The translations under genes were made by a program, and so were the position numbers. A stretch of 23,270 nt of DNA from Anaerolineae bacterium (GTDB lineage: Bacteria; Chloroflexota; Anaerolineae; S140-20): NCBI GenBank assembly GCA_027021705.1, contig JALUTT010000161.1, forward strand, positions 1 to 23,270. The letters run 5' to 3'. This document shows, in pieces, positions 1 through 12,604 of the stretch. Below the pieces are notes generated by a model. The model saw only the letters and a list, made by a program, of their open reading frames with translations, had not been told where the DNA came from and did not search any database. Within the stretch, counting starts at the first letter, position 1, and each line of letters starts with the position of its first letter.

Positions 1-191
1 TGGTGCGTTTCATCGAGACGGAGGAGTGGGTCAGGAGCGTCGCCTTCTCCCCCGACGGCCTGATCCTGGCCGTGGGCCTGGAGGACGGCACGGTACGGTT
101 GTGGCAGACGACCGATGGATCGCCGATGCGCACCCTGAAAGGGCACACCGATTATACGATCTCCGTCCCTCCACCACAAGACTGTCCATAG
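1..191 (+). CDS. WD40-repeat protein, 3' end (runs in from the window edge)
   Basis: VRSVAFSPDGLILAVGLEDGTVRLW..TLKGHTD is a typical bacterial WD40 repeat. The last repeat breaks off after GHTDYTISV. Confidence 0.8.
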   Translation, partial: VRFIETEEWVRSVAFSPDGLILAVGLEDGTVRLWQTTDGSPMRTLKGHTDYTISVPPPQDCP

Positions 192-199
192 GTGAAGCG

Positions 200-1735
200 A
201 TGAACACGATCAAAAGACTATTCTCCATAGCGATGCTACTTTGCCTGTCTGCGGCCTGCTCCGGCTCGCCCCCTCCCCCGACGCCGGAACAGGAGGTCGC
301 GCCACCGCGACCTGCCAACATCCCGACCCCCACTGCCCCTTCCCTCCGGCCGCTGCCGGCGACTCCGACTCCCGTGGCTGCCCCCACCCGGCCGCCAACA
401 GCGACCCCGGCTGTGCCCGGCCCCACCTTGGCCGCCCCCGAACGGGCCGCGACCCTCCTCACCGTGGACGCCGTCCCCAGCGGGGAAACCCTCCGCCCGC
501 TGCTGGGCGTCAACCTGGGGCCGATCCCCGGCGGCACCGACCCCAACAACGCCGACGTGACCGCCCAGTACCAGGAGATCGGGGTGACCATGATCCGCAC
601 CCACGGCTACAGCGGCCCCCTCGATATGAGCGCCATGTACCCCGACCAGAACGCCGACCCCACCGATCCGGCCTCCTACCGGTTCGAGAGGAGCGACCGC
701 GTCTTTCAGGCCATCCTGGACGGTGGCTTTGAGCCGTACCTGCGCCTGGGTGATTCGTGGAACACCCCCGGCCTGGAACGGCGTGCCCCGACCAATCCTC
801 AGAACTGGGTGCGGGCCGCGGTCGAGGTCGTGCGCCACTACCGTCAGATGGCCGCGGAGGCCGGCATCCCCCTGCGCTACGTCGAAATCTGGAACGAGCC
901 CAACTCCAAACATTTCTGGGATTCCACGCCGCAGGCCTTTTTCGAGCTCTTTGCCCAGACCGCCAAGGCGCTCAAGGCCGAGTTCCCCGACCTGAAGGTG
1001 GGCGGTCCCGCCCTCACCCAGGGTGCGGCGATGCTCCCCCAGGGACGGCAGTACACCGAAAACTTTTTGGCTTACTTGCAAGACCACGACGTGCCGCTGG
1101 ACTTTTTGTCCTGGCACATCTATTCCAACGACCCGGAGGATTACCGCGAGGCGGCCCGCTTCTACCGGGAACAGCTGGACGCCCACGGCTACACCGATGC
1201 CGAAAGCCACATCACCGAGTGGAACACCGCCTCGGAGACCGGTCGCGGGGTAGCGAACGACGTCTCGCTGCGGGCCGGTGGCAAGGGGGCCTCCCTGCTC
1301 AGCGCGTTCTGGATTGTTCTGCAAGAGGAGGGCGTGGATGTCTCGACCATTTTCCGGGGGACCGACACCAGCATTGACGTGCCCGGCTTCTTCGGCATCT
1401 TCTACGCCGACGGGCGGCCCAAACATCCGGCCCTGGCCTTCTCGCTGTGGGCGCGGATGGCCGCCCACCCGCAGCGGCTGAACGTCGCCCACGGGGACGA
1501 TGGGCTGTGGGTGCTGGCCGGACAGGATGAGAGCGGTGAAATCGCTCTGCTGGTGGTCAACCCCACCGAGAGGCCCACCTCCTGGCAGGCGACCTACGCG
1601 GGGCGCGACCTCGGTCCGGGAGCCATCCTGTACCAGGTCAGCGACGCCGCCGACACGGTGCAGACCTTCACCCTGGAGTCGCCCGTCGTCGAGATCGGCG
1701 CTTATACCGTGCAGCTTCTGGTTGTGAGACCGTAA
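200..1735 (+). CDS. GH39-like (clan GH-A) glycoside hydrolase lipoprotein
   Basis: ATG at 200 gives signal peptide MNTIKRLFSIAMLLCLSAAC (lipobox) followed by a Pro/Thr linker. EIWNEP (acid/base) and HITEWN (nucleophile) motifs, plus LDFLSWHIY and KVGGPA. Confidence 0.85.
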   Translation: MNTIKRLFSIAMLLCLSAACSGSPPPPTPEQEVAPPRPANIPTPTAPSLRPLPATPTPVAAPTRPPTATPAVPGPTLAAPERAATLLTVDAVPSGETLRPLLGVNLGPIPGGTDPNNADVTAQYQEIGVTMIRTHGYSGPLDMSAMYPDQNADPTDPASYRFERSDRVFQAILDGGFEPYLRLGDSWNTPGLERRAPTNPQNWVRAAVEVVRHYRQMAAEAGIPLRYVEIWNEPNSKHFWDSTPQAFFELFAQTAKALKAEFPDLKVGGPALTQGAAMLPQGRQYTENFLAYLQDHDVPLDFLSWHIYSNDPEDYREAARFYREQLDAHGYTDAESHITEWNTASETGRGVANDVSLRAGGKGASLLSAFWIVLQEEGVDVSTIFRGTDTSIDVPGFFGIFYADGRPKHPALAFSLWARMAAHPQRLNVAHGDDGLWVLAGQDESGEIALLVVNPTERPTSWQATYAGRDLGPGAILYQVSDAADTVQTFTLESPVVEIGAYTVQLLVVRP

Positions 1736-1900: not shown

Positions 1901-2509
1901 ATGTCGAGCGAGACGCCGGTGATCATACGCTGGGACTACGCGGGCAAGCCGGACCTGCTGGTGGGGACGGGGGCCACGCCTTCTGAAAGGGCGCTGGCGT
2001 GGGTTGCCGTCCTGGTGGCGCTCTCGGTGTACCTCGTCTTGCACCTGGCGGGGCGGCTGGATTGGCGACCTTGGCAGTACGTCGTGGCCGGCCTCATTGC
2101 CCTGGATGCGGGGGGCGGCGTGGTGGCCAACAGCCTCAACACCTGCAAGCGGTTCTACCACGCTCCCCTCCACGACGAGGAGAGTGGGATCGCGGCCTGG
2201 GCGAAGAACCACGCCTTCTTCGTCGCCCTGCACGTCCACCCCCTGCTTGTGGGGGTGTTGTACGCCGGCGCGGGTGGGCTGTTCTACGGCCTGGTGTGGT
2301 ATGGGCTACTGCTCCTCTGGAGCGCGGTTGTGCTCAAGGCCCCCCTCTATCTGCGGCGGCCCATCGCGATGCTGGGCATCCTCTTCGCCTTGCTGGTGAA
2401 CACGTACCTCATCACGCCGGTGGTGGGGTTCGAGTGGCTGATGCCGGCCCTGTTCCTCAAGATCGTCTACGGCCACCTGGTGCGGGAGGAACCGTACCGG
2501 CCGGCGTAG
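1901..2509 (+). CDS. hypothetical multi-pass membrane protein
   Basis: ATG at 1901 after purine-rich GAAAGGAAGAG; several hydrophobic segments; GC3-rich codons. Confidence 0.75.
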   Translation: MSSETPVIIRWDYAGKPDLLVGTGATPSERALAWVAVLVALSVYLVLHLAGRLDWRPWQYVVAGLIALDAGGGVVANSLNTCKRFYHAPLHDEESGIAAWAKNHAFFVALHVHPLLVGVLYAGAGGLFYGLVWYGLLLLWSAVVLKAPLYLRRPIAMLGILFALLVNTYLITPVVGFEWLMPALFLKIVYGHLVREEPYRPA

Positions 2510-5500
2510 ACGAGGGAGCGGTCACCTCGATGGCGATCCCCGGGGCCGTGCCCACCTTCTCCGCGTCGTACATATCGTGCACCGAGACGAAGAGGTGACC
2601 CCGGCCGGGCCGGACGGCGACGGCGTCCACGGTGAGGCTGGCCCGTTCGATGGGCAGGTGGGCGGTCTGGGCGTTGACGCCTCCCTTGAGCAGGGCCAGG
2701 GTGCCGGGCAGGAAGAGACGCACCAGCGGGGCGATGGTCTGCTCCTGGGGGGTGATGGTGATCTGCATCCGCTCACCCACCTCCAGCCGCCTCGTGCTCG
2801 GCTCAACGGTGAAGCGGAAGTCGCCCCGGGGCTCCAGGTGGTTGATCTCGATCTCCTCGTCCACCCGCACGATGAGGTTGTCGCTCAGGGCGGTCACCTC
2901 CCGGCCCACGTTCACCTCGCTCAGCAGGACCTCCCGCCCGTCGAGGATCGCCCGGGAGGTGGGGGCGAACTTGAGGGAGGCGAGCAGTTCGACCAGGGCG
3001 CGGGTGTCGGCGGTGGAGTAGAGCATGCCGTTGACCAGCTTGCTGGTGACGTAGGCGAAGGCGGGCCGGAAGAGAGGGTCACCGGCGTCGTACATCACCC
3101 GGGCCACGTCGGCCGTCACCTCCAGGGTGCCCCCCCAGGCGGTGCGGGCTTCCCAGTAGGCCCTCTCCCCGTCGCGGTGTACGTTCTGACGGAGGAAGGC
3201 CAGCGCCTTGGCCTTGGCGCGGCGGCCGTCGCCGGCGAAGTAGTAGGCGACCGCATCCTCCACCCCTTCCATCTCCTGGCGAAAGCGGGCGTCCAGCGGC
3301 AGGAGGGCGTTGTCCCGATACTTGGCCTTGAGCAGCGCATCCCGGGCCTTGGTCAGCATCTCCTCGGCCATGGGGAAGGGGAGGCCGCGCAGCCCGAGCA
3401 GCCGGTGCGCCACCCGCGCCGTGATCTCCAGCCCCGGCTGTCCACCGCACCAGATGGAGAACCGCCCATCGGGATGCTGGAAGGTGGAGAGCCGCTGCAA
3501 CCCCGCCAGGATGCGCCCCCTCGTCGTCGGCAGGTCACCCGACACGATCCCCTCGTGGATTCCTCGGTAGGCCGTGGCTAACCCATACAGGGCGCTCGAG
3601 GTCTGCTCCGCTCACCCGAAGGGGTAGTGGATGAGGGCGGTGATGGTCTCCTGGAGCACCTGCCCTGGCGAGTCGTAGACCACGACCCGCTCCCCCCGGA
3701 CGGTCTGGCCCCTGTCCAGGATCACCAGGCGGGAGGCGGTGACCTTCTGGAGGCCGGGCGGGGCCACGTCGCGGACGGTCCAGTCGGCCTCGTCCTCGCT
3801 CTCGAGGCGCACTTCCACGCGACCGGGGCCGGTGAGGGTGAACGGCTCCGTCCCGCTGCCGGCGACCTGGACCCGCTTCTCGCCGTCGGGGGTGGCGATG
3901 AGCAACCGGGCCGGGCGCCGGGTGCGGTAGTTGACCGCCGCGACGATCTCGTCGCCGGGCGAGGCGATGGCGGGGAGGTCCAGTTCGGCGTAGAGGGGCT
4001 TGTCCGCCTGCACGTCGGCGGTCAGCTCCCGGTAATCGGCCCCCTTGAAGAGGTAGGCCCGCACGCGCCAGGTGCCGATCTGGTCACCCAGTTGCACCGT
4101 GCGGGAGGCGCTGCCCTCCAGGTAGAAGAGCTCCAGGTGGGCCAACTCGGGGAACTCCATCCGCATCGGGGCGACCACCAACTCCAGGACCTCGGCTGCC
4201 TCAACCACCTCCTCGGGGGCCATTGGGCTTGGGATCTTCAGCCCTTCCATGCCTGGGGGGCGGGCAGCGCTGCGGAGCCGTCCACGGAGCACCGGAGCGC
4301 CGGTGAAGAGGTCCTGGGGAAGCTCCCACACCTGCTCCTTCGCGCTGGCGACGGTGTCGAGGGCCAGGTTGTGGGTGGCGTCGCGGATGCTCTCGTAGAT
4401 GCCCTTGGCCAGCTTGGGGAGCGGGCTTTCGTGCTCCAGCCGAGCGTCGTAGACCAGCAGCCAGCAGTAGGCGGGGATGGGCGGGGCGTCGGCGTGGGGT
4501 GGGGTGATGGCGATCTCCACCTCGATGGCCTCGCCGGGCCGGGCGGTCTGCGGTGCCGTCAACCGGGCCTCGAAGGCGACCGGCTTGATGACGACGCCCC
4601 AGCCCTCGAAGGGCTTGCCCTTGACGAAGGTGCCGACGGTGAAGAGGGTGTAGGGCGCGGAGACGTCGAAGGTCACCCGCTGGCCTCGCCGGAGGGAGGG
4701 GAACTCCAGGACCTGGGCGGTCCCCGCCCGGGGGTCGAGGACCACCACCTGGGTCGCGCCCAGGTCAGAGGTGGCCTGGAGTTGGCCCACGTCGGCGTGG
4801 GCGCTCTCCAGCGTCAGCGGCGTCATGCTGACCCCGCCGGAGCCCAGGTAGAAGCCGCGCACCGGTTGGGCCTCCTCCCAGGGTAGCAGCCCCATCTCCG
4901 CCACCGGGCCCAGCCGGTTGATGGCGATGCGCCTCCGCTCGACGGCCCCCGTGCCGGGGAAGGCCACCAGCGCGGTGTTGCCGTCGGGGGTGGTGACCTG
5001 GACGTGGAAGGGGCCGCCGTGGCCAGAGAGGTCGAAGTCGCCCTGGGCGAGGCCCTCTTTGGCCTCCACCTTCTGCGTGGCGATGACCCGGTCGCCACAG
5101 GCGCGGCATTGGAGCCCGAACTCCACCGGGCCGGCGTAGGGGACGGAGAGCCGCAACAGGCGGAGGGTGAAGGTGAGGTGGTCCCGGGCGTACTCGTGCT
5201 TCTCCAGGGTGGCGATGAGGGGGGAGAGGGTGTACTCGGCCACGCTGAAGGTGCACTCGGCCTGTCCGCCCTCCTCCAGGGAGACGACGGCGGTGTATTC
5301 CCCTTCCCGCAGGTCGGCGTAGCGGTGCAGTGCCAGCCCCTCCTGGTTGAGGGAGAGCGAGGCTTCGTAGACCTTGTTCCCGGCGAACCGGATCTCCAGC
5401 TTCGCCTCTCCCCCGGCCGCGTCGGGCGCGACGATGAAGAAGGTCGCTTCGTCGTCGGCCCGGTAGACCTTGCGGTCGGTGACGACGGCCAGGAGCTGGA

Positions 5501-5831
5501 GCGAGGGGTGGGGGAGTCGGGGCTGGTCGGGGAGGGGGGGGATGAGCTGGCCCTTCCTGCGGCGGCTCTTGAGCAAGCTTGCGATGGTCTGGGTGGGTTC
5601 CTCGTCGCCGAAGCCGACGGCGTGCCGATGGCGGGAGAGGATGGTGGGCCGGTCGAAACGGCGCACGGCGTCATCCACTCTCAGCGCCACCGGGTGCTCC
5701 CGGTCGGCCTGGACGAAGATGAACTGGCGTCCGATGAAGAGGCGCTCGCGGAAGTCGTGGACATCCTGCCCGCACCGGACGCATCGCTGCACGTCGGCCG
5801 GGTTGGGGTGAAAGCACTGGGGACAGAACAT
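2457..5831 (-). CDS. alpha-2-macroglobulin-family thioester-domain protein with N-terminal zinc ribbon; in-frame TGA at 3612-3614 predicted to encode selenocysteine (1124 aa with readthrough)
   Basis: A2M motifs VVTDRKVYR, PQTARPGEAIEV, LLVYDARL, RMEFPE..GDQIGTWRVRA, KPLYAELDLP..PGD, YPFG*AEQTSS and GLQRLSTFQHPDGRFSIW. The frame continues for 384 sense codons after the TGA. GGGAGG RBS before ATG 5831. Confidence 0.8.
3562..3611 (-). promoter_or_regulatory. candidate bacterial SECIS element
   Basis: After the UGA: GC-GCCC-[UGUAU]-GGGU-(UA bulge)-GC at +17..+35, with loop G at +24 followed by U. A possible outer helix is CCUCG(+11..15)/CGAGG(+46..50). Folded by eye. Confidence 0.55.
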
Positions 5832-5926
5832 CGTGGCCTCCCTGTACGTCGCCTTCCCGGCGATGCTCCCGCGTTTATCGCAGCGGATCCTCTATGAGTC
5901 GCCGAGCTTCGCTTCCTTCGTTGCTG

Positions 5927-5955
5927 ATTATAGCATCGTTGGGAGAGAAGAGCAA
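5927..5955 (-). promoter_or_regulatory. sigma70-type promoter of the A2M-like gene
   Basis: TTGCTC-17 bp-TATAAT with extended -10 (TGcTATAAT), about 95 bp upstream of the ATG. Confidence 0.7.
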
Positions 5956-6039
5956 CCGCGTCATTCGTTGTCCGCGCCGACGGTTCCAACGGGTGAGCGG
6001 GGAGTGGTGCTCTCAGCCCTGGCATCCTCATTCCGGGGC

Positions 6040-7155
6040 TCAATCCAACCGGTGCTGGACGCTGAGGAGAGCCACCAGGCCGATCCCCACCCCCAGCCCC
6101 ACCAGCGCCAGCGCCCGAGGCCACAGGAGCGAGAGGGGCGTCCCCTTCAGCATCACGCTGCGCAGGATGGCCAGGTAGTGTTGCAAGGGGGAGAGTTGGG
6201 CGATGAAGCGCAGCAGGGTGGGGAGGTTCTCCACCGGCACCAGGTAGCCGGCGAAGGCGATCTCGGTCATCGCCACCACGAAGACGTAGAGGATCGCTTG
6301 CTGCTGCGTGCGGGCTATGCTGGAGAGGAGGATGCCCCAACCGGTCTCGGCGACGACGAAGAGGAAGCTGAGCCCCAGCAGCAGCCCCAAAGAGCCCCGC
6401 AGAGGCACCTTGAAGCCCCAGAAGGTCAGGGGCAGCAGCAGGAGGAAGTCCACCAGGCCGATGAGGATGGCGGGGATCGCTTTGCCGGTGATCAGCTCGA
6501 AACGGCGCATCGGCGTCACCAGCAACTGCTCCAGCGTCCCCAGTTCCCGCTCCCGGGCCAGCCCCAGCGAGGCCACCGCCAGCGTTACCTGGTAGACGAT
6601 GAACCCCACTTGGGCGGGGATGGTGTAGTCGCGAAAGTTGAAGGTGGGGTTGAAGCGGACCGTCGCTCGCAGGTCCACCCTTCCTCTCTCCCCCTCCCTC
6701 CGGCGGGCCATCTGCCGCCGGACGAAATCGTTGATGGCCCCCTCCGCCGCCCGCAGCGCGGTGCTCCCCGCTACATCGTTGGAGGCATCGGCGACGATCT
6801 GGACCTGGGGGGCTCGGTTGGGATGGGCGAAGGTGGCGGCGAAGCCGGCCGGGATGATCAGCCCGGCGGTCGCCCTTCCCTCGTCCAGCAGCCGACGGAG
6901 CGCCGCCATATCCTCCGGGTAACAGCACGTCTCCAACTCCGGGGTGTTCTCCACCGCCGTCACCAGGGAGCGGCTGAGGGGGGAGCGATCGTAGTCCAGC
7001 ACGGCCAGGGGGAAGCCCTCCATGTGGCGGCCCGTCGCCTGGGCCATCAAAACAAGCTGGAGCAGGGGCAGCAGGATGAGAAAGGCGGTCAGCAGGGGAT
7101 CGCGCACGTACTGGATGAACTCCTTGACCACCATATTGCCAATGCGGTAGATCAT
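6040..7155 (-). CDS. ABC-2 type transporter permease (YbhR-like)
   Basis: N-terminal KEFIQYVRD plus a TM helix, extracytoplasmic domain, ARERELGTLEQLLVTP motif, C-terminal TM bundle, SPLQHYLAILRSVMLKG. Confidence 0.9.
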   Translation of the reverse strand: MIYRIGNMVVKEFIQYVRDPLLTAFLILLPLLQLVLMAQATGRHMEGFPLAVLDYDRSPLSRSLVTAVENTPELETCCYPEDMAALRRLLDEGRATAGLIIPAGFAATFAHPNRAPQVQIVADASNDVAGSTALRAAEGAINDFVRRQMARRREGERGRVDLRATVRFNPTFNFRDYTIPAQVGFIVYQVTLAVASLGLARERELGTLEQLLVTPMRRFELITGKAIPAILIGLVDFLLLLPLTFWGFKVPLRGSLGLLLGLSFLFVVAETGWGILLSSIARTQQQAILYVFVVAMTEIAFAGYLVPVENLPTLLRFIAQLSPLQHYLAILRSVMLKGTPLSLLWPRALALVGLGVGIGLVALLSVQHRLD

Positions 7156-7281: not shown

Positions 7282-8388
7282 CTACAGTCGCTTGCGGAAG
7301 AGCAGCACGCTCAGGATGAACCCTCCCGCGCCCATAGCGACCAAGGCCAGGGCGGGGAAGAGCAGTCCCTCCAACCCAACCCCCTTGAGGAAGAGGGAGC
7401 GGTTGATGGCGATGAAATGGGTGGTAGGCAGGGCGTAGGCAATCAGCCGCGAGGCCAGCGAGCGGGTGCTAAGCGGCTGGATGAGGCCCGTCAGGAAGAA
7501 ACTGGGGACGAAGAAGGCCATCAGGACGACGAACATCGCCGTCTGCTGGCTGGCGACGAAGTTGGCAACCAGCAGGCTCAGCCCCATGCTGGCCACCAGG
7601 TAGACGGCGGCGAAGAGCAGGAAGAGCCGGAAGTCACCCCGGAAGGGGACCCGGAACCAGAGGGTGGCCACCAGCCAGGCGAGCACCGCGCCAACCAGGC
7701 CGCTGATGAGGTAGGCAACCACTTTTCCGGCCAGATACTCCATCCCTCGCAGCGGGGTGGAGATCAGCCCCTCGAAGGTGCCCGTCTCTTTCTCCCGGGT
7801 GAGGGCCAGGGCCAGGGCCAGGGCAGGCAGCACCAGGACGATGGCTGCCAGCCCAGGTACCATGCTGATCAGTGCCTTCGAGGCAGGGTTATACCAGAGC
7901 CGGCTTTCCACTTGGAGAGGGGTTAGGTGCAGGCCCTGCGTGCCCATCTTCGCGGTGAAGGCCTGGGTGCGGGCGCTCAAGCTGCTCAGCGTCTGGCCGG
8001 CGGCGATGGGGTCCATCCCTTCGATGAGGAGTTGGACCGGGGCATCCTCCCCCCGGCGGAGCCGTTGGTCGAAGCCGTGGGGGATCACCAGCACGCCGTC
8101 CACGCGGCCGGCCAGCAGCAACGATTCCGCCTCCTCGTACCTCTGGGGCTGCTCCGCCAGGCGGATCTCCCCATCGCTGATCAGGAAGGCCAGGTAACGC
8201 CGGGAGAGGGGGCTGTGGTCCAGGTCCACGGCGGCCAGGGCGATCTGCTCCACGTCGAGGGAGAAGACGTAGGAGAGAACGAAGAGGAGGAAAGCCGGCG
8301 AGAGGGTAACCAGGAAGAGGGTGCGCAGGTCCCGACGGATGTGGTGGAACTCTTTGCGGACGATGGCTAGGGTGCGGTGTAGGGACAT
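7282..8388 (-). CDS. ABC-2 type transporter permease (YbhS-like)
   Basis: KEFHHIRRDLRTL, DLDHSPLSR, RLWYNP, TREKETGTFEGLISTP and RSLFLKGVG motifs. Confidence 0.9.
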   Translation of the reverse strand: MSLHRTLAIVRKEFHHIRRDLRTLFLVTLSPAFLLFVLSYVFSLDVEQIALAAVDLDHSPLSRRYLAFLISDGEIRLAEQPQRYEEAESLLLAGRVDGVLVIPHGFDQRLRRGEDAPVQLLIEGMDPIAAGQTLSSLSARTQAFTAKMGTQGLHLTPLQVESRLWYNPASKALISMVPGLAAIVLVLPALALALALTREKETGTFEGLISTPLRGMEYLAGKVVAYLISGLVGAVLAWLVATLWFRVPFRGDFRLFLLFAAVYLVASMGLSLLVANFVASQQTAMFVVLMAFFVPSFFLTGLIQPLSTRSLASRLIAYALPTTHFIAINRSLFLKGVGLEGLLFPALALVAMGAGGFILSVLLFRKRL

Positions 8389-8893: not shown

Positions 8894-9553
8894 CTATCCC
8901 ACATAGCGGAAGAGGGCCACGGCTATGGCTGAGTAGACAAAGATGAGGGCGCCGACGAGCAGCCCACCCAGCGCCCAATCCCGCACCGGGCGCTTCTCCA
9001 GCCAAGCGACGATGACGCAGAGGCTGGCGATGAGGGCGACGAAGGTGAGGATCACCCAGTGGCTTACGTGGGCCAGGAGCGAGGCGTTGATGTAGCGCCA
9101 GGCGTGGGCCTGATAGGCCATCTCCTCGTACCAGGTGTGCAGGATTGAGCCGACCACCGTCACCAGGCCGATGGCGGGCCACAGGCCGATCCGCCTCTTC
9201 AGCCAGAGGGTCAGGTAGCCGAGTTGAAGGAAGGCGAAGCCCCAGCCGGCGATGATGTAGTCAGGCGTCTCCCAGATTCGGAAGAGGGCGTAGTCATAGA
9301 CCAGCGTCTCGACGACCCGGGCGTGGTACCAGTCGGTGAGAAGCTGCACCAGGTCGGCGAAGAGGGGCAACACTAGCAGGCGGACCAGCAGACGGTTGCG
9401 GGTGAGGCCGGTGTAGACCAGGTAGGTCAGGACCATCTGCCAAGCAATGAAGGAAAAAGCCCACGGTCGGCGGAGGACCAGGCCGGCCAGACTCACCTCC
9501 AGCACCGTGAGCACCATCGTCACCAGGATCAGGCGGTCGGTACGGCTGTCCAT
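8894..9553 (-). CDS. hypothetical multi-pass membrane protein (DUF6989-like, tentative)
   Basis: AGGAGG RBS; about 7 hydrophobic segments; DW..V..TLVY, IWETP and YEEMAY patterns. Confidence 0.7.
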   Translation of the reverse strand: MDSRTDRLILVTMVLTVLEVSLAGLVLRRPWAFSFIAWQMVLTYLVYTGLTRNRLLVRLLVLPLFADLVQLLTDWYHARVVETLVYDYALFRIWETPDYIIAGWGFAFLQLGYLTLWLKRRIGLWPAIGLVTVVGSILHTWYEEMAYQAHAWRYINASLLAHVSHWVILTFVALIASLCVIVAWLEKRPVRDWALGGLLVGALIFVYSAIAVALFRYVG

Positions 9554-9714: not shown

Positions 9715-9850
9715 CGAGGCTGTCTGGAGGACAACCCTCACCCATAGAAGCCCAGCCCCCTCCTGCCATCTCCCAGGAGCCTCGGGCTCCTGGTACGCTT
9801 CGGTCAACGCCACGAAGGCATAACACAAAGCACGAAGGAGGATGGAAACC

Positions 9851-12604
9851 GTGAGCAAGAAGTGGGTCTACTTGTTCGACGAAGTGGATGAAGCGGAGGC
9901 TTATGCCGGCGATTGGGAGGGCGTGCGTAGCCTGCTCGGCGGCAAAGGGGCCGGTCTGGCCGATATGACTCGGGCCGGTATCCCCGTGCCTCCCGGCTTC
10001 ACCATCACCACCGAAGCCTGCAACGCCTACCTCTCCGCCGGCGAGAAGTTCCCCGACGGAATGTGGGAGCAGACCCTGGAAGCCCTCAAAAAGGTCGAGG
10101 AACGGACGGGCAAGGGATTTGGTGACCCCGAAAACCCGCTCCTCGTCTCTGTCCGGTCGGGGGCCAAATTCTCGATGCCCGGCATGATGGACACCGTCCT
10201 CAACGTCGGCCTCAACGACGAGACCGTCCAGGGGATGATCCGGCTGACGGGCAACGAGCGCTTCGGTTGGGATGCCTATCGGCGGCTCATCTCGATGTTC
10301 GGTTCCATCGTGATGGGCATCCCCGATGAGGCTTTCGACGAGGCGATGGACGAGCTGAAGCGGGAGCGGGGAGCGACCTTGGATACGGACCTGACGGCCG
10401 AGGATCTGAAGGAATTGGTCCGGCGGTTCAAGGCGATCTACAAGCAGCACACCGGCAGCGACTTCCCTCAGGACCCCGTTGAGCAACTCCGCCTGGCCAC
10501 CGAGGCCGTCTTCAAGAGTTGGTTCGGCAAGCGAGCAGTGGACTATCGAAACGCCACCGGCATCCCCCACGACTTGGGGACGGCGGTCAACGTGGTGACG
10601 ATGGTCTTCGGCAATATGGGGTGGGACAGCGGCACCGGCGTGGCCTTCACTCGGGACCCGGCCACCGGTGAGAAGAAGCTCTACGGCGAATACCTCCTCA
10701 ACGCCCAGGGCGAGGACGTGGTGGCCGGCATCCGCACCCCCAAGCCCATTGTCGAGATGGAGAAGGAGCTTCCCGAAGCCTTCGCCCAGTTCCTGGAGAT
10801 CTGTGAGCGACTGGAGCGTCATTACAAGGATATGCAGGACGTGGAGTTCACCATTGAGCGGGGCAGGCTTTGGATGCTCCAGACCCGGACGGGGAAGCGA
10901 ACGGCCCAGGCCGCTGTCAAGATCGCTGTGGACTTGTGCAAGGAAGGGATCATTGACAAGGCGACGGCCGTGCAGCGGGTGACGCCCGATCAGGTGGACA
11001 TGCTCCTGCACCCCCAGTTCGACCTGCAGGCCAAGGAGGAGGCCGTAGAGGCCGGTCGCCTGCTGGCAACAGGCGTCAACGCTTCCCCCGGCGCGGCCGT
11101 GGGCATGCTCGCCTTCGACGCCGACACCGCCGAGGAGTGGGGTAAGGGTGGCAAGCCCGTCATCCTTATCCGACCTGAGACCAAGCCCGACGACGTGCAC
11201 GGCATGCTGGCCGCCAAGGGCATCCTCACCAGCCGGGGCGGGGCAACCTCCCACGCCGCCGTCGTCGCCCGTCAGTTCGGCATCCCCGCCGTCGTCGGCT
11301 GCGAGGCCCTGGAGATTGACCTGGACAAGCGCACCGTCTCGGTCAACAGCATCACCCTCAAGGAGGGCGATTTCGTCTCCATTGACGGGGGCTCCGGCGA
11401 GGTCTTCGTGGGCGAGATCCCGACCGTCGCGCCCAGCTTCGAGGAACAGCCTGATCTGGTGACACTGCTGGAGTGGGCCGACGAGATCGCCGCCCAGGAG
11501 GGTGTCCGCCAGTGGCCCGAGGGCTATCAGGGCTATCCGACCCGGGGGCTCCAGGTTTGGGCCAACGCCGACTACCCCAAGGATGCCCAGCGGGCCCGCA
11601 ACTTCGGCGCTCGGGGGATCGGTCTCTGCCGCACGGAGCACATGTTCTTCGAGGAAGAGCGGCTGCCCATCGTCCAGAAGATGATCTTGGCCAAGACCGC
11701 CGAGGAGCGGGAGACCTATCTGAACCAGTTGCTCCCCTTCCAGCGAGAGGACTTCCGAGGCATCCTGCGAGCGATGGCCCCTTATCCCGTCATCATCCGG
11801 CTCATTGACCCGCCCCTCCACGAGTTCCTCCCCTCCTACGAGGAGCTGCTGGTCGAGGTGACGGAGATGCGGGTCAAGGGCATCAGCGGCCCTGAGCTGG
11901 AAGAGAAAGAGCGGTTGCTGGCCGCCGTGGAGGCGATGCGGGAGGCCAACCCGATGATGGGGTTGCGGGGCGTCCGGCTGAGCATCGTGATGCCTGAGAT
12001 CGTCAAGATGCAGGTGCGGGCCATCTTCGAGGCTGCCTGCTTGGAGGCCAAGGAAGGCGTGGACGTGCACCCCGAGGTGATGATTCCCCTGACCAGTTCG
12101 GTCAACGAGCTCAAGCTGATCCAGACCGAGTTGGAGAAGGTGGCCCGGCAGGTGATGGAAGAGCAGGGGATCGAGGTGGAGTACAAGTTCGGTACGATGA
12201 TCGAGATCCCCCGGGCCGCCTTGACCGCCGATGAGATCGCCGGCGTGGCCCAGTTCTTCTCCTACGGCACCAACGACCTGACGCAGATGACTTTCGGCTT
12301 CTCCCGGGATGATGCCGAGGGCAAGTTCCTGATGGACTACATCGAGAAGGGGATCCTCCCGGCCAACCCCTTCCAGACGCTGGATCAGGAGGGCGTGGGG
12401 AAGCTGGTGGAGATGGGGACGCGGCTGGGCCGTCAGACCCGTCCCGAGCTGGAGGTGGGTATCTGCGGGGAGCATGGTGGTGATCCCGAGTCCATTGACT
12501 TCTGTCACCGGGCCGGGCTGAACTACGTGAGCTGCTCCCCCTTCCGGGTGCCCATCGCCCGGCTGGCGGCGGCCCACGCTGCCCTGCGCCACGCGCCCCA
12601 GTGA
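9851..12604 (+). CDS. ppdK: pyruvate, phosphate dikinase
   Basis: LLGGKGAGLA, PLLVSVRSGA..SMPGMMDT, phospho-His motif GGATSHAAVVAR, GIGLCRTEHMFF, FFSYGTNDLTQ, GICGEHGGDP. GTG 9851 is preferred over ATG 9842 because AGGAGG directly abuts 9842. Confidence 0.97.
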   Translation: MSKKWVYLFDEVDEAEAYAGDWEGVRSLLGGKGAGLADMTRAGIPVPPGFTITTEACNAYLSAGEKFPDGMWEQTLEALKKVEERTGKGFGDPENPLLVSVRSGAKFSMPGMMDTVLNVGLNDETVQGMIRLTGNERFGWDAYRRLISMFGSIVMGIPDEAFDEAMDELKRERGATLDTDLTAEDLKELVRRFKAIYKQHTGSDFPQDPVEQLRLATEAVFKSWFGKRAVDYRNATGIPHDLGTAVNVVTMVFGNMGWDSGTGVAFTRDPATGEKKLYGEYLLNAQGEDVVAGIRTPKPIVEMEKELPEAFAQFLEICERLERHYKDMQDVEFTIERGRLWMLQTRTGKRTAQAAVKIAVDLCKEGIIDKATAVQRVTPDQVDMLLHPQFDLQAKEEAVEAGRLLATGVNASPGAAVGMLAFDADTAEEWGKGGKPVILIRPETKPDDVHGMLAAKGILTSRGGATSHAAVVARQFGIPAVVGCEALEIDLDKRTVSVNSITLKEGDFVSIDGGSGEVFVGEIPTVAPSFEEQPDLVTLLEWADEIAAQEGVRQWPEGYQGYPTRGLQVWANADYPKDAQRARNFGARGIGLCRTEHMFFEEERLPIVQKMILAKTAEERETYLNQLLPFQREDFRGILRAMAPYPVIIRLIDPPLHEFLPSYEELLVEVTEMRVKGISGPELEEKERLLAAVEAMREANPMMGLRGVRLSIVMPEIVKMQVRAIFEAACLEAKEGVDVHPEVMIPLTSSVNELKLIQTELEKVARQVMEEQGIEVEYKFGTMIEIPRAALTADEIAGVAQFFSYGTNDLTQMTFGFSRDDAEGKFLMDYIEKGILPANPFQTLDQEGVGKLVEMGTRLGRQTRPELEVGICGEHGGDPESIDFCHRAGLNYVSCSPFRVPIARLAAAHAALRHAPQ

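Follow-up and report, generated by a model that had tools for sequence, protein, structure and literature searches.

A2M-superfamily proteins and a TGA-interrupted relative

Bacterial alpha-2-macroglobulins (A2Ms) of the ECAM type carry a lipoprotein signal peptide and are periplasmic, and the genes encoding them are linked to pbpC. Type I bacterial A2Ms, including ECAM of E. coli (YfhM; 5a42, 4ziq and 4rtd, with 'lipoprotein YfhM' as the PDB molecule name) and Salmonella A2M (SaA2M; 4u48 and 4u4j), consist of an array of macroglobulin (MG) beta-sandwich domains and a helical thioester-type domain (TED). Here we describe a gene on the minus strand of JALUTT010000161.1, a 23,270-nt stretch of Anaerolineae DNA that was analyzed as a whole and is referred to below as the window, in which the codon at the thioester Cys column is an in-frame TGA. 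The evidence supports, with a probability of roughly 0.85, a 1124-residue protein of the A2M/thioester superfamily in which the thioester Cys is replaced by selenocysteine (Sec). All residue numbers given here refer to this 1124-residue read-through product.

Like ECAM and SaA2M, the gene product combines an MG array with a helical TED, its Y-P-[YF]-G-x-x-E-Q-T motif aligns with theirs column for column, and a flexible segment precedes the Pfam A2M domain, at the place of the bait region. It differs from them in having a Sec codon where they have Cys, in sharing only 12-16% identity with them, and in its length of 1124 residues, compared with 1614-1647 in the PDB chains (type I proteins have approximately 1600-1650). 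Compared with ECAM, it starts with a zinc ribbon, has neither a lipoprotein signal peptide nor a hydrophobic segment, and carries Cys795 where ECAM has Asp. No pbpC was found among the 10 window open reading frames (ORFs) scanned. Eukaryotic A2M, A2ML1, CD109, insect TEP1 and C3/C4 also share the overall fold, the G-C-x-E-Q column and the TED, but those proteins are secreted, glycosylated, longer and Cys-based, whereas the protein described here is bacterial, has no export signal and appears to be Sec-based.

The locus also resembles known bacterial selenoprotein genes (FdhA, SelD, GrdA/B, Prx, Trx-like), which have a UGA at a Cys column, Cys homologs, a downstream hairpin and selA/B/C/D in the genome; the FdhA-type genes and selD of the window genome itself have the same layout of in-frame UGA and hairpin. 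Unlike in those proteins, the replaced Cys is the acyl-bearing residue of an internal thioester rather than a redox or metal-ligand residue. To our knowledge, the functions established for selenocysteine are almost exclusively redox activity and metal ligation. An earlier prediction for this DNA (the original prediction) had proposed a GUxEQ selenoprotein, and this reading is supported by the conservation of the TGA on the Cys column, the presence of the Sec machinery, purifying selection and independent contigs, as described below; none of the refuting conditions that it had set for itself was borne out.

One reading frame with a single internal TGA

The following features define the gene:
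2457..5831, minus strand: whole gene, 1124 codons plus a terminal TGA, with one internal TGA read through; A2M-superfamily protein
3612..3614, minus strand: TGA, presumably encoding selenocysteine as residue 740, on the Cys column of the thioester motif G-C-x-E-Q
5837..5842, minus strand: Shine-Dalgarno sequence GGGAGG, 5 nt ahead of the ATG, read directly in the sequence
5927..5955, minus strand: promoter-like TTGCTC-17 nt-TATAAT (TATAAT at 5932..5927, perfect), found by eye only

The ORFs at 3612..5831 (739 aa) and 2457..3545 (362 aa) are both on the minus strand and in the same frame. Translation of 2457-5831 showed a sole internal stop, the TGA at 3614..3612, in the context ...ITALIHYPFG-U-AEQTSSALYGL..., and the junction peptide across residue 740 is YPFG-U-AEQTSSALYGLATAYR. 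The residues add up without frameshifts (739 + 1 + 22 + 362 = 1124), and the terminal stop of the gene (2459..2457) is also a TGA. The original prediction that the two ORFs share a frame and are joined by one TGA and 22 sense codons into a 1124-aa product was therefore borne out by translation. It had also described the ribosome-binding site and the promoter as intact; the former is indeed present as GGGAGG, 5 nt before the ATG, while the promoter stands only in part, as TATAAT and TTGCTC were recognized by eye and a consensus promoter/terminator scanner run over window positions 2200-6200 called 0 sites at its thresholds. The expectation that standard pipelines would split the gene proved correct, since stumps of approximately 700 aa are labelled 'hypothetical protein' or 'alpha-2-macroglobulin family protein' in the source annotations.

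Fold and position of the TGA

The regions and residues of the protein to which the following paragraphs refer are:
5757..5831, minus strand: N-terminal zinc ribbon CPxC...CxxC, residues 1-25, with a weak Pfam DZR match at residues 3-24
4170..4325, minus strand: disordered hypervariable segment, residues 503-554, a candidate bait region; pLDDT below 50, ahead of the Pfam A2M match that starts at residue 572
2976..3668, minus strand: thioester-type domain (TED, helical toroid), residues 722-952, which holds Sec740, Gln743, Tyr736 and Cys795
3603..3608, minus strand: codons for Glu742 and Gln743, the latter being the presumed ester partner of residue 740
3447..3449, minus strand: Cys795 (F-S-I-W-C-G-G), the Cys that accompanies the Sec form

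The gene product is a bona fide A2M-fold protein of the alpha-2-macroglobulin/thioester-protein superfamily. Pfam matches above the cut-off were found for TED_complement at residues 724-835 (23.8 bits; cut-off 22) and for A2M at residues 572-631 (22.7 bits; cut-off 21); MG2 scored 17.4 bits, below its cut-off of 32.8, and no NCBIfam model matched the protein. A model built with AlphaFold2 from a 25-sequence alignment, with the TGA read as Cys, had a mean predicted local distance difference test (pLDDT) score of 85.5 and a predicted template modelling (pTM) score of 0.75. It consists of the zinc ribbon, a series of beta-sandwiches, the disordered segment 503-554, the helical region 722-952 and a C-terminal beta domain. 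When this model was compared with the PDB using Foldseek, the top 50 matches all belonged to the A2M superfamily (A2M, TEP, C3/C4/C5, CD109 and ECAM), with E-values from 7.6e-38 to 4.7e-28. Among them were A2ML1 (7q1y, 7.6e-38), ECAM (5a42, 1.5e-37), CD109 (8s3o, 4.6e-37) and Salmonella A2M (4u48, 2.8e-36), as well as the chains 4d94, 7von and 8oq3; identities across these matches, which include C5, TEP1 and A2M, were 11-16%.

A profile of the family aligned YPfG-C-AEQT to YPYG-C-LEQT of E. coli YfhM/ECAM (5a42, E 1.1e-14), and also aligned to Salmonella A2M, human A2M, C4, TEP1 and CD109. The TGA is therefore located on the thioester Cys column, and the alignments to ECAM and Salmonella A2M bear out this part of what had been predicted. 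The assignment of residues 722-952 to a TED is supported by the helices of the model, by the Pfam TED_complement match and by a profile match to the ECAM TED at residues 729-907. At the C-x-E-Q motif, the Cys column is occupied by TGA (presumably Sec) and not literally by Cys, both in the window and in 48 of the 49 loci that span the site, with E and Q kept. Glu742 and Gln743 were invariant in all 25 aligned full-length sequences, and AEQ was found in 49/49 spanning loci. Tyr736 is Tyr in 23 of the 25 rows, Ser being found in L067/P0003, a Cys form described below. Its counterpart in the alignment with Salmonella A2M is the first Tyr of YPYGC, which we take to be Y1175, the shielding residue mutated in 4u4j, on an assumed numbering offset.

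The zinc-ribbon motif was found in every homolog whose extracted sequence reaches residue 1 (20/22). Segment 503-554 is without consensus in alignments A1 and A3. No signal peptide or hydrophobic segment was detected, with a maximal 19-residue Kyte-Doolittle average of 0.26 in the first 70 residues and 1.28 in the whole protein.

Conservation of the TGA across loci

When residues 560-1000 were searched against a collection of 5.8 billion proteins, 120 proteins were listed. Among these listed matches, 112 (620-796 aa, 49-100% identical) terminate exactly at ...YPFG, with the window's own stump being one of the 112. Three others (P0002, P0003 and P0023) are full length with GCAEQ, and the remaining five are distant A2Ms of 1500-1850 aa with GC[FLA]EQ. 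At the DNA level, a set of 58 entries was assembled, representing the window and 57 loci, of which 17 came from species genomes and 40, among them the window again as L069, from contigs of metagenomes. The species-genome loci are from metagenome-assembled genomes (MAGs) labelled Anaerolineae, Anaerolineales, Thermoflexales, Chloroflexota, Chloroflexia and Caldilineaceae, plus one labelled Planctomycetia. The site motif was missing from 9 of the 58 entries; seven stop short of the site, the alignment of L105 is split into two pieces there and includes an ambiguous residue (X), and the L106 contig is frameshifted, although G-*-AEQTSS can still be read in it.

In the 49 loci that span the site, the codon is TGA in 48 (47 without the duplicate) and TGC in one (L067), with no TAA and no TAG, while the true terminators of the homolog genes are a mixture of TAA, TAG and TGA. 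An ortholog was found in one of 40 sampled genomes of the same class (G033), again with one TGA; the others had only distant A2Ms of approximately 2000 aa without stops. The TGA is thus not unique to the strain and alternates with Cys, which is encoded by TGC in one locus and occupies the site in three distinct homologs from the database.

Contigs of sequencing runs X2, X3 and X4, which belong to two other studies and are approximately 99% identical to the window, have an unchanged TGA at 3612-3614; run X1 may be the source of the window DNA and was not counted as independent support. Because the contigs of these three further runs keep the TGA, a base-call error, which the original prediction had named among the conditions that would refute it, can be excluded. 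An in-frame stop in a single sequence resembles a nonsense mutation, so that a pseudogene or a sequencing or assembly error was considered as an explanation. The same TGA in 48 loci (47 without the duplicate) and in contigs from two other studies, together with purifying selection on both sides of the TGA (see below) and a gene free of frameshifts, leaves this explanation with a negligible probability. The candidate explanation of a pseudogene or sequencing error was ruled out on the basis of the conserved TGA, the substitution ratios and the independent contigs.

One homolog, on a contig labelled uncultured Planctomycetia (L065), reads Y-P-Y-G-TGA-AEQTS at 42% identity, all other homologs being from Chloroflexota; its placement points to a binning error or horizontal transfer. 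Several contigs diverge or stop soon past the site (L103 after approximately 20 residues, L106 by frameshifts, and L068, L064 and L089 by early stops), and these breaks look like assembly errors rather than biology. DNA nearly identical to window positions 3200-4000 was found in runs of three studies labelled hydrothermal vent metagenome and, as a small share, in a hot-spring run; no RNA run was among the runs listed with such DNA.

Translation and selection past the TGA

The sequence directly after the TGA is AEQTSS[A/T]LYGLA in 48/48 TGA loci, and AEQTSS follows the site codon in 49/49 spanning loci. The frame remains open for 360-392 codons past the TGA in those loci whose contig cleanly reaches a terminator. 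Within the conserved 12 codons past the TGA, T4, S5, S6, L11 and A12 vary synonymously while the residues themselves are invariant; therefore, selection acts on the protein there. The ratio of nonsynonymous to synonymous substitution rates (dN/dS, or omega) was calculated by the NG86 method for 25 full-length loci, using the last 600 codons as the upstream part and retaining the 149 of 300 pairs with 0.05 < dS < 1.5 on both sides. Median omega in these 149 pairs was 0.28 downstream of the TGA and 0.40 upstream. Close pairs gave 0.164 upstream versus 0.137 downstream (L054/L073) and 0.180 versus 0.131 (L056/L078). Among strain-level differences in near-identical contigs, 8/9 were synonymous overall and 5/6 downstream of the TGA. 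Purifying selection downstream of the TGA is at least as strong as upstream, and the relaxed selection that was to be expected of a decaying downstream part was not seen, either in omega or in the downstream strain differences.

These data also bear on a reading in which the UGA is a true stop and the locus makes an MG-domain protein of approximately 740 aa and a separately initiated TED protein. Gene callers annotate the locus in this way, and the window has a GTG 22 codons past the TGA that could serve as a start. However, the stop is TGA in 48/48 stop-bearing loci and never TAA or TAG, the 12 codons after it are kept as protein despite their synonymous variation, full-length versions with Cys in a single frame exist, and the predicted model folds as one A2M-like chain. 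In addition, a conserved start is absent, as the first possible start for a separate downstream ORF shifts among loci from +34 to +202 nt after the TGA. Two polypeptides from this locus are thus very improbable. Taking into consideration the downstream conservation, the open frame, the omega values, the synonymous differences and the wandering starts, both the pseudogene and the two-gene explanations were rejected.

Selenocysteine machinery

In the window genome (G000; 183 contigs, 94.9% complete), selA (566 bits), selB (350 bits with its neighbouring pieces) and selD (376 bits, with its own in-frame TGA) were identified, together with a tRNA-Sec (72.5 bits), which ARAGORN reported as tRNA-SeC with anticodon TCA. 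The search for selA, selB, selC and selD that had been suggested thus found all four. The genome also has two formate dehydrogenase (FDH)-type genes with an in-frame TGA, and these and selD could be used as internal controls:
C5:63076-64938, C56:110094-110849 and C41:5488-6420 of the window genome: two FDH-type genes and selD, ordinary selenoprotein genes with one in-frame TGA each

Across the 17 genomes that carry a homolog, selA was above the cut-off in 15 and tRNA-Sec (65-72 bits) was found in 16, with at least one of the two in each. The Sec machinery is compatible with the use of Sec but not discriminating. Taking together the conserved UGA that alternates with Cys, the selected sequence after it, the machinery and the hairpin described below, Sec would very likely be inserted at UGA740 by SelB-dependent decoding.

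A candidate SECIS hairpin

In bacteria, selenocysteine insertion sequence (SECIS) elements are stem-loops that directly follow the UGA and have an apical-loop G approximately 16-37 nt from it. A candidate for such a structure was found in the window:
3576..3596, minus strand: candidate bacterial SECIS hairpin with core CCC-UGUAU-GGG at 3592..3582 (CCCUGUAUGGG), the loop of which starts 22 nt after the UGA

Codons +7 to +10 after the TGA, [G/A]CC CTG TAT GGG, are synonymously frozen in 44 unique TGA-form sequences (CTG 44/44, GGG 44/44, TAT 41/44 and GCC 26/26). Elsewhere in the same alignment, invariant Leu, Gly and Tyr columns use 2-5 codons, and GGG and TAT are minority codons for Gly and Tyr in the overall codon usage of the family. 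The hairpin folds in every TGA form (-6.6 to -15.3 kcal/mol) with G-U in the loop, and its stem extends to 7-8 pairs in two clade-specific lower-stem registers. In the first, UCN at Ser6 and YUG at Leu11 allow a continuous helix (as in L053, -15.3 kcal/mol), and in the second, with AGC at Ser6, 2 nt bulge out on the 3' side of the helix. In L067, the Cys form, these codons read CUC UAC GGU and no hairpin is present (-3.2 and -4.8 kcal/mol). G-U likewise occupies the apical loop of the GC-rich FDH and selD hairpins of the window genome, 18-33 nt past their UGA. Based on its position, its synonymous-site invariance and its absence from the Cys form, and not on covariation, the hairpin represents a candidate SECIS.

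The 11-mer CCCTGTATGGG occurs in 3 copies in the genome, compared with 2.5 expected by chance, and only this copy follows a TGA; it is therefore not a genome-wide SECIS word. A long-range lower stem, CCUCG...CGAGG, that could be drawn for the window was discarded, as by-eye inspection of alignment A4 showed that it is not kept in other sequences.

Exchange of Sec and Cys

A FastTree phylogeny was built from the part upstream of the site with 57 rows, comprising every second Sec form of at least 700 aa and the 3 Cys forms. In this tree, P0002 and P0003 were placed inside the window's own Sec clade (95% support) and P0023 was a long-branch outlier, so that the three Cys forms are scattered and at least two Sec/Cys state changes are forced by well-supported branches. 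Selenoprotein families usually show such exchange, with Sec and Cys replacing each other at one column. The final 25 residues of P0003 and L067 are identical, and the two entries probably represent one protein. In L067, from a Caldilineaceae MAG, S-S-F-G-C replaces Y-P-F-G-U (L067:3973-3984), Cys795 is missing and the branch length is 1.13, as if the sequence had changed faster once Sec had been replaced by Cys.

Proposed mechanism

In the proposed mechanism, SelB with Sec-tRNA(Sec) would read UGA740 as Sec. In the folded TED, the Sec740 selenolate could then attack the side-chain amide of Gln743 to form an internal selenoester, by analogy with ECAM, A2M and C3, and Tyr736 could shield this ester. 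Cleavage of the bait-like segment 503-554 would trigger a conformational change that exposes the ester, which may acylate a nucleophile of the cleaving protease or of another target and trap it covalently. Acyl transfer from a selenoester is faster than from a thioester, and capture would therefore be quicker. If Sec is present, the odds that a Sec740-Gln743 selenoester forms and serves covalent capture are, on this analogy, slightly better than even; the ester is argued for chiefly by E-Q and Tyr736, which selection has retained. The protein carries a zinc ribbon and lacks both a signal peptide and a membrane segment, and its site of action is probably intracellular, in contrast to the A2Ms that are periplasmic lipoproteins.

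Cys795 could have a further role in the protein. All 21 Sec forms in alignment A3 have Cys at this position, as do 40 of the 41 distinct translations of TGA forms. Among the Cys forms, L067/P0003 have Q at this column and P0023 has E, while P0002 keeps C; the residue in ECAM and SaA2M is Asp. Cys795 is a possible selenenylsulfide or acyl-relay partner of Sec740. If so, a selenenylsulfide with Cys795 would couple covalent capture to a redox latch that Cys-based macroglobulins lack. Combined, these proposals would describe the first natural protein selenoester and a use of Sec in acyl transfer rather than in redox chemistry, in a cytoplasmic zinc-ribbon macroglobulin that captures intracellular targets such as invading or phage proteases and in which Cys795, once the acyl group has been discharged, catches the freed selenolate; this combination is put forward tentatively, at somewhat less than even odds.

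Points against and alternative explanations

Several observations weigh against Sec insertion or against the ester. Because selA was found in 35/41 sampled genomes of the class, co-occurrence of the family with the Sec machinery does not discriminate, and the genome of a Cys form (G056) has this machinery as well. The window's own hairpin is weak (-6.6 to -7.2 kcal/mol) compared with the FDH SECIS of its genome, and it was the weakest when set beside the control hairpins (FDH, GUCGCC-GGUCU-GGCGAC; selD, GCGCAG-GUU-CUGCGC). RNAalifold with 16 sequences recovered only two stems, the invariant CCC:GGG and a GCU/AGC stem that surrounds the UGA, and counted 0 compensatory pairs. When explicit helices were scored in 40 sequences, the continuous helix had 65.4% paired cells (54/500 shuffles as high) and the bulged helix 85.4% (292/500), and the covariation score of the explicit helices reached 50/500 at best, which is not significant. 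As neither helix convincingly beats shuffles, no covariation is claimed for the hairpin. A synonymous-recoding control yielded values of at most 0.05 in 5/32 TGA forms, with mean energies of -8.7 versus -6.9 kcal/mol, a modest excess. The 81 nt from the TGA, folded alone, were unexceptional (z 0.68; 148/200 shuffles as stable), and an Rfam scan of window positions 3400-3700 with E-values up to 10 returned three chance-level matches and no SECIS family.

A short hairpin of this kind, without significant covariation or an Rfam SECIS match, could also be expected if the UGA were decoded in another way, either by near-cognate read-through (as Trp, Cys, Arg or Gly) or through a recoding signal unrelated to SelB. 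However, TGA also terminates the window gene and many homologs, and the codon is therefore not reassigned. A Cys column with Cys homologs is the usual signature of Sec, the genome has the complete Sec machinery, and insertion of Trp, Arg or Gly would abolish the ester, yet E and Q are invariant. Decoding other than as Sec is thus considered improbable.

With Sec insertion at UGA740 as the preferred reading, the remaining points concern its chemistry. A protease trap would not usually be expected in the cytoplasm. A selenoester is an ester with a better leaving group, and its spontaneous formation from the Gln amide may be less favourable than that of a thioester. The invariance of Cys795 in the Sec forms could indicate selenenylsulfide (redox) chemistry instead. 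Redox chemistry with Cys795 is the main rival within the Sec reading; Sec740 would then be a redox or ligand residue, for example in a selenenylsulfide with Cys795, in a repurposed TED fold. The presence of Cys795 throughout the Sec forms of alignment A3 and in nearly all TGA-form translations is consistent with this, as is its loss in two of the three distinct Cys forms and its replacement by Asp in ECAM and SaA2M. By the topology of the model, Cys795 would be located in a beta-hairpin (783-800) between TED helices, at the same end as residue 740. Almost all known selenoproteins are redox proteins according to the abstracts of two reviews (PMC13188914, PMC9312934). On the other hand, the invariance of E742 and Q743 (25/25) and the near invariance of Tyr736 (23/25) are expected of an ester partner and a shield and are unneeded for pure redox chemistry, and the Cys form P0002 retains Cys795. 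A purely redox role of Sec740 is considered less likely than not.

Relation to known selenoproteins

In its main text, BSepDB reports 111 bacterial selenoprotein families (PMC13326102). The terms 'macroglobulin', 'thioester' and 'A2M' had 0 occurrences in the main texts of a 2026 review of the prokaryotic selenoproteome (PMC13188914), of BSepDB (PMC13326102), of deep-Sep (PMC12013277) and of a 2022 review (PMC9312934). They also had 0 occurrences within Table S1 of the BSepDB supplement, the family list being in Table S2, outside that search. Full-text literature searches that combined selenocysteine or selenoprotein with macroglobulin, thioester, SECIS or selenoester returned nothing relevant among the matches listed. 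The protein is very probably an uncatalogued selenoprotein that carries a conserved UGA at the reactive thioester Cys, and it represents a previously unrecognized family of selenoproteins within a known superfamily, in which Sec occupies an acyl-carrying rather than a redox position.

The family comprises at least 47 distinct loci and, among the matches listed, 112 database clusters, mostly from Anaerolineae and other Chloroflexota, and gene callers systematically cut its genes in two. Annotation that takes Sec into account, as well as catalogues of selenoproteins, would have to include a new model of the family. If confirmed, it would extend the chemistry of selenocysteine to acyl transfer and provide a natural test of selenoester versus thioester reactivity in a protein. 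It also represents a compact branch of macroglobulins without a signal peptide, with a possible role in intracellular defence.

Gene neighbourhood and other macroglobulins in the genome

The neighbours of the gene in the window are:
26-1735, plus strand: GH39-like glycosyl hydrolase
6040-7155, minus strand: ABC-2 permease
7282-8388, minus strand: ABC-2 permease
8894-9553, minus strand: DUF6989 protein
9842-12604, plus strand: pyruvate phosphate dikinase

No neighbour gene is conserved across the family; conservation was found only within a sub-clade of 5-7 loci, and none of the window's neighbours is conserved beside the homologs. The neighbourhood therefore gives no operon clue to function. 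The window genome also has two canonical A2M-like open frames of approximately 2040-2080 aa without stops (C100:7394-7717 and C5:9136-9354), so that the short Sec form coexists with long Cys-type macroglobulins. One long A2M-like frame is located approximately 10 kb from selA on contig C100.

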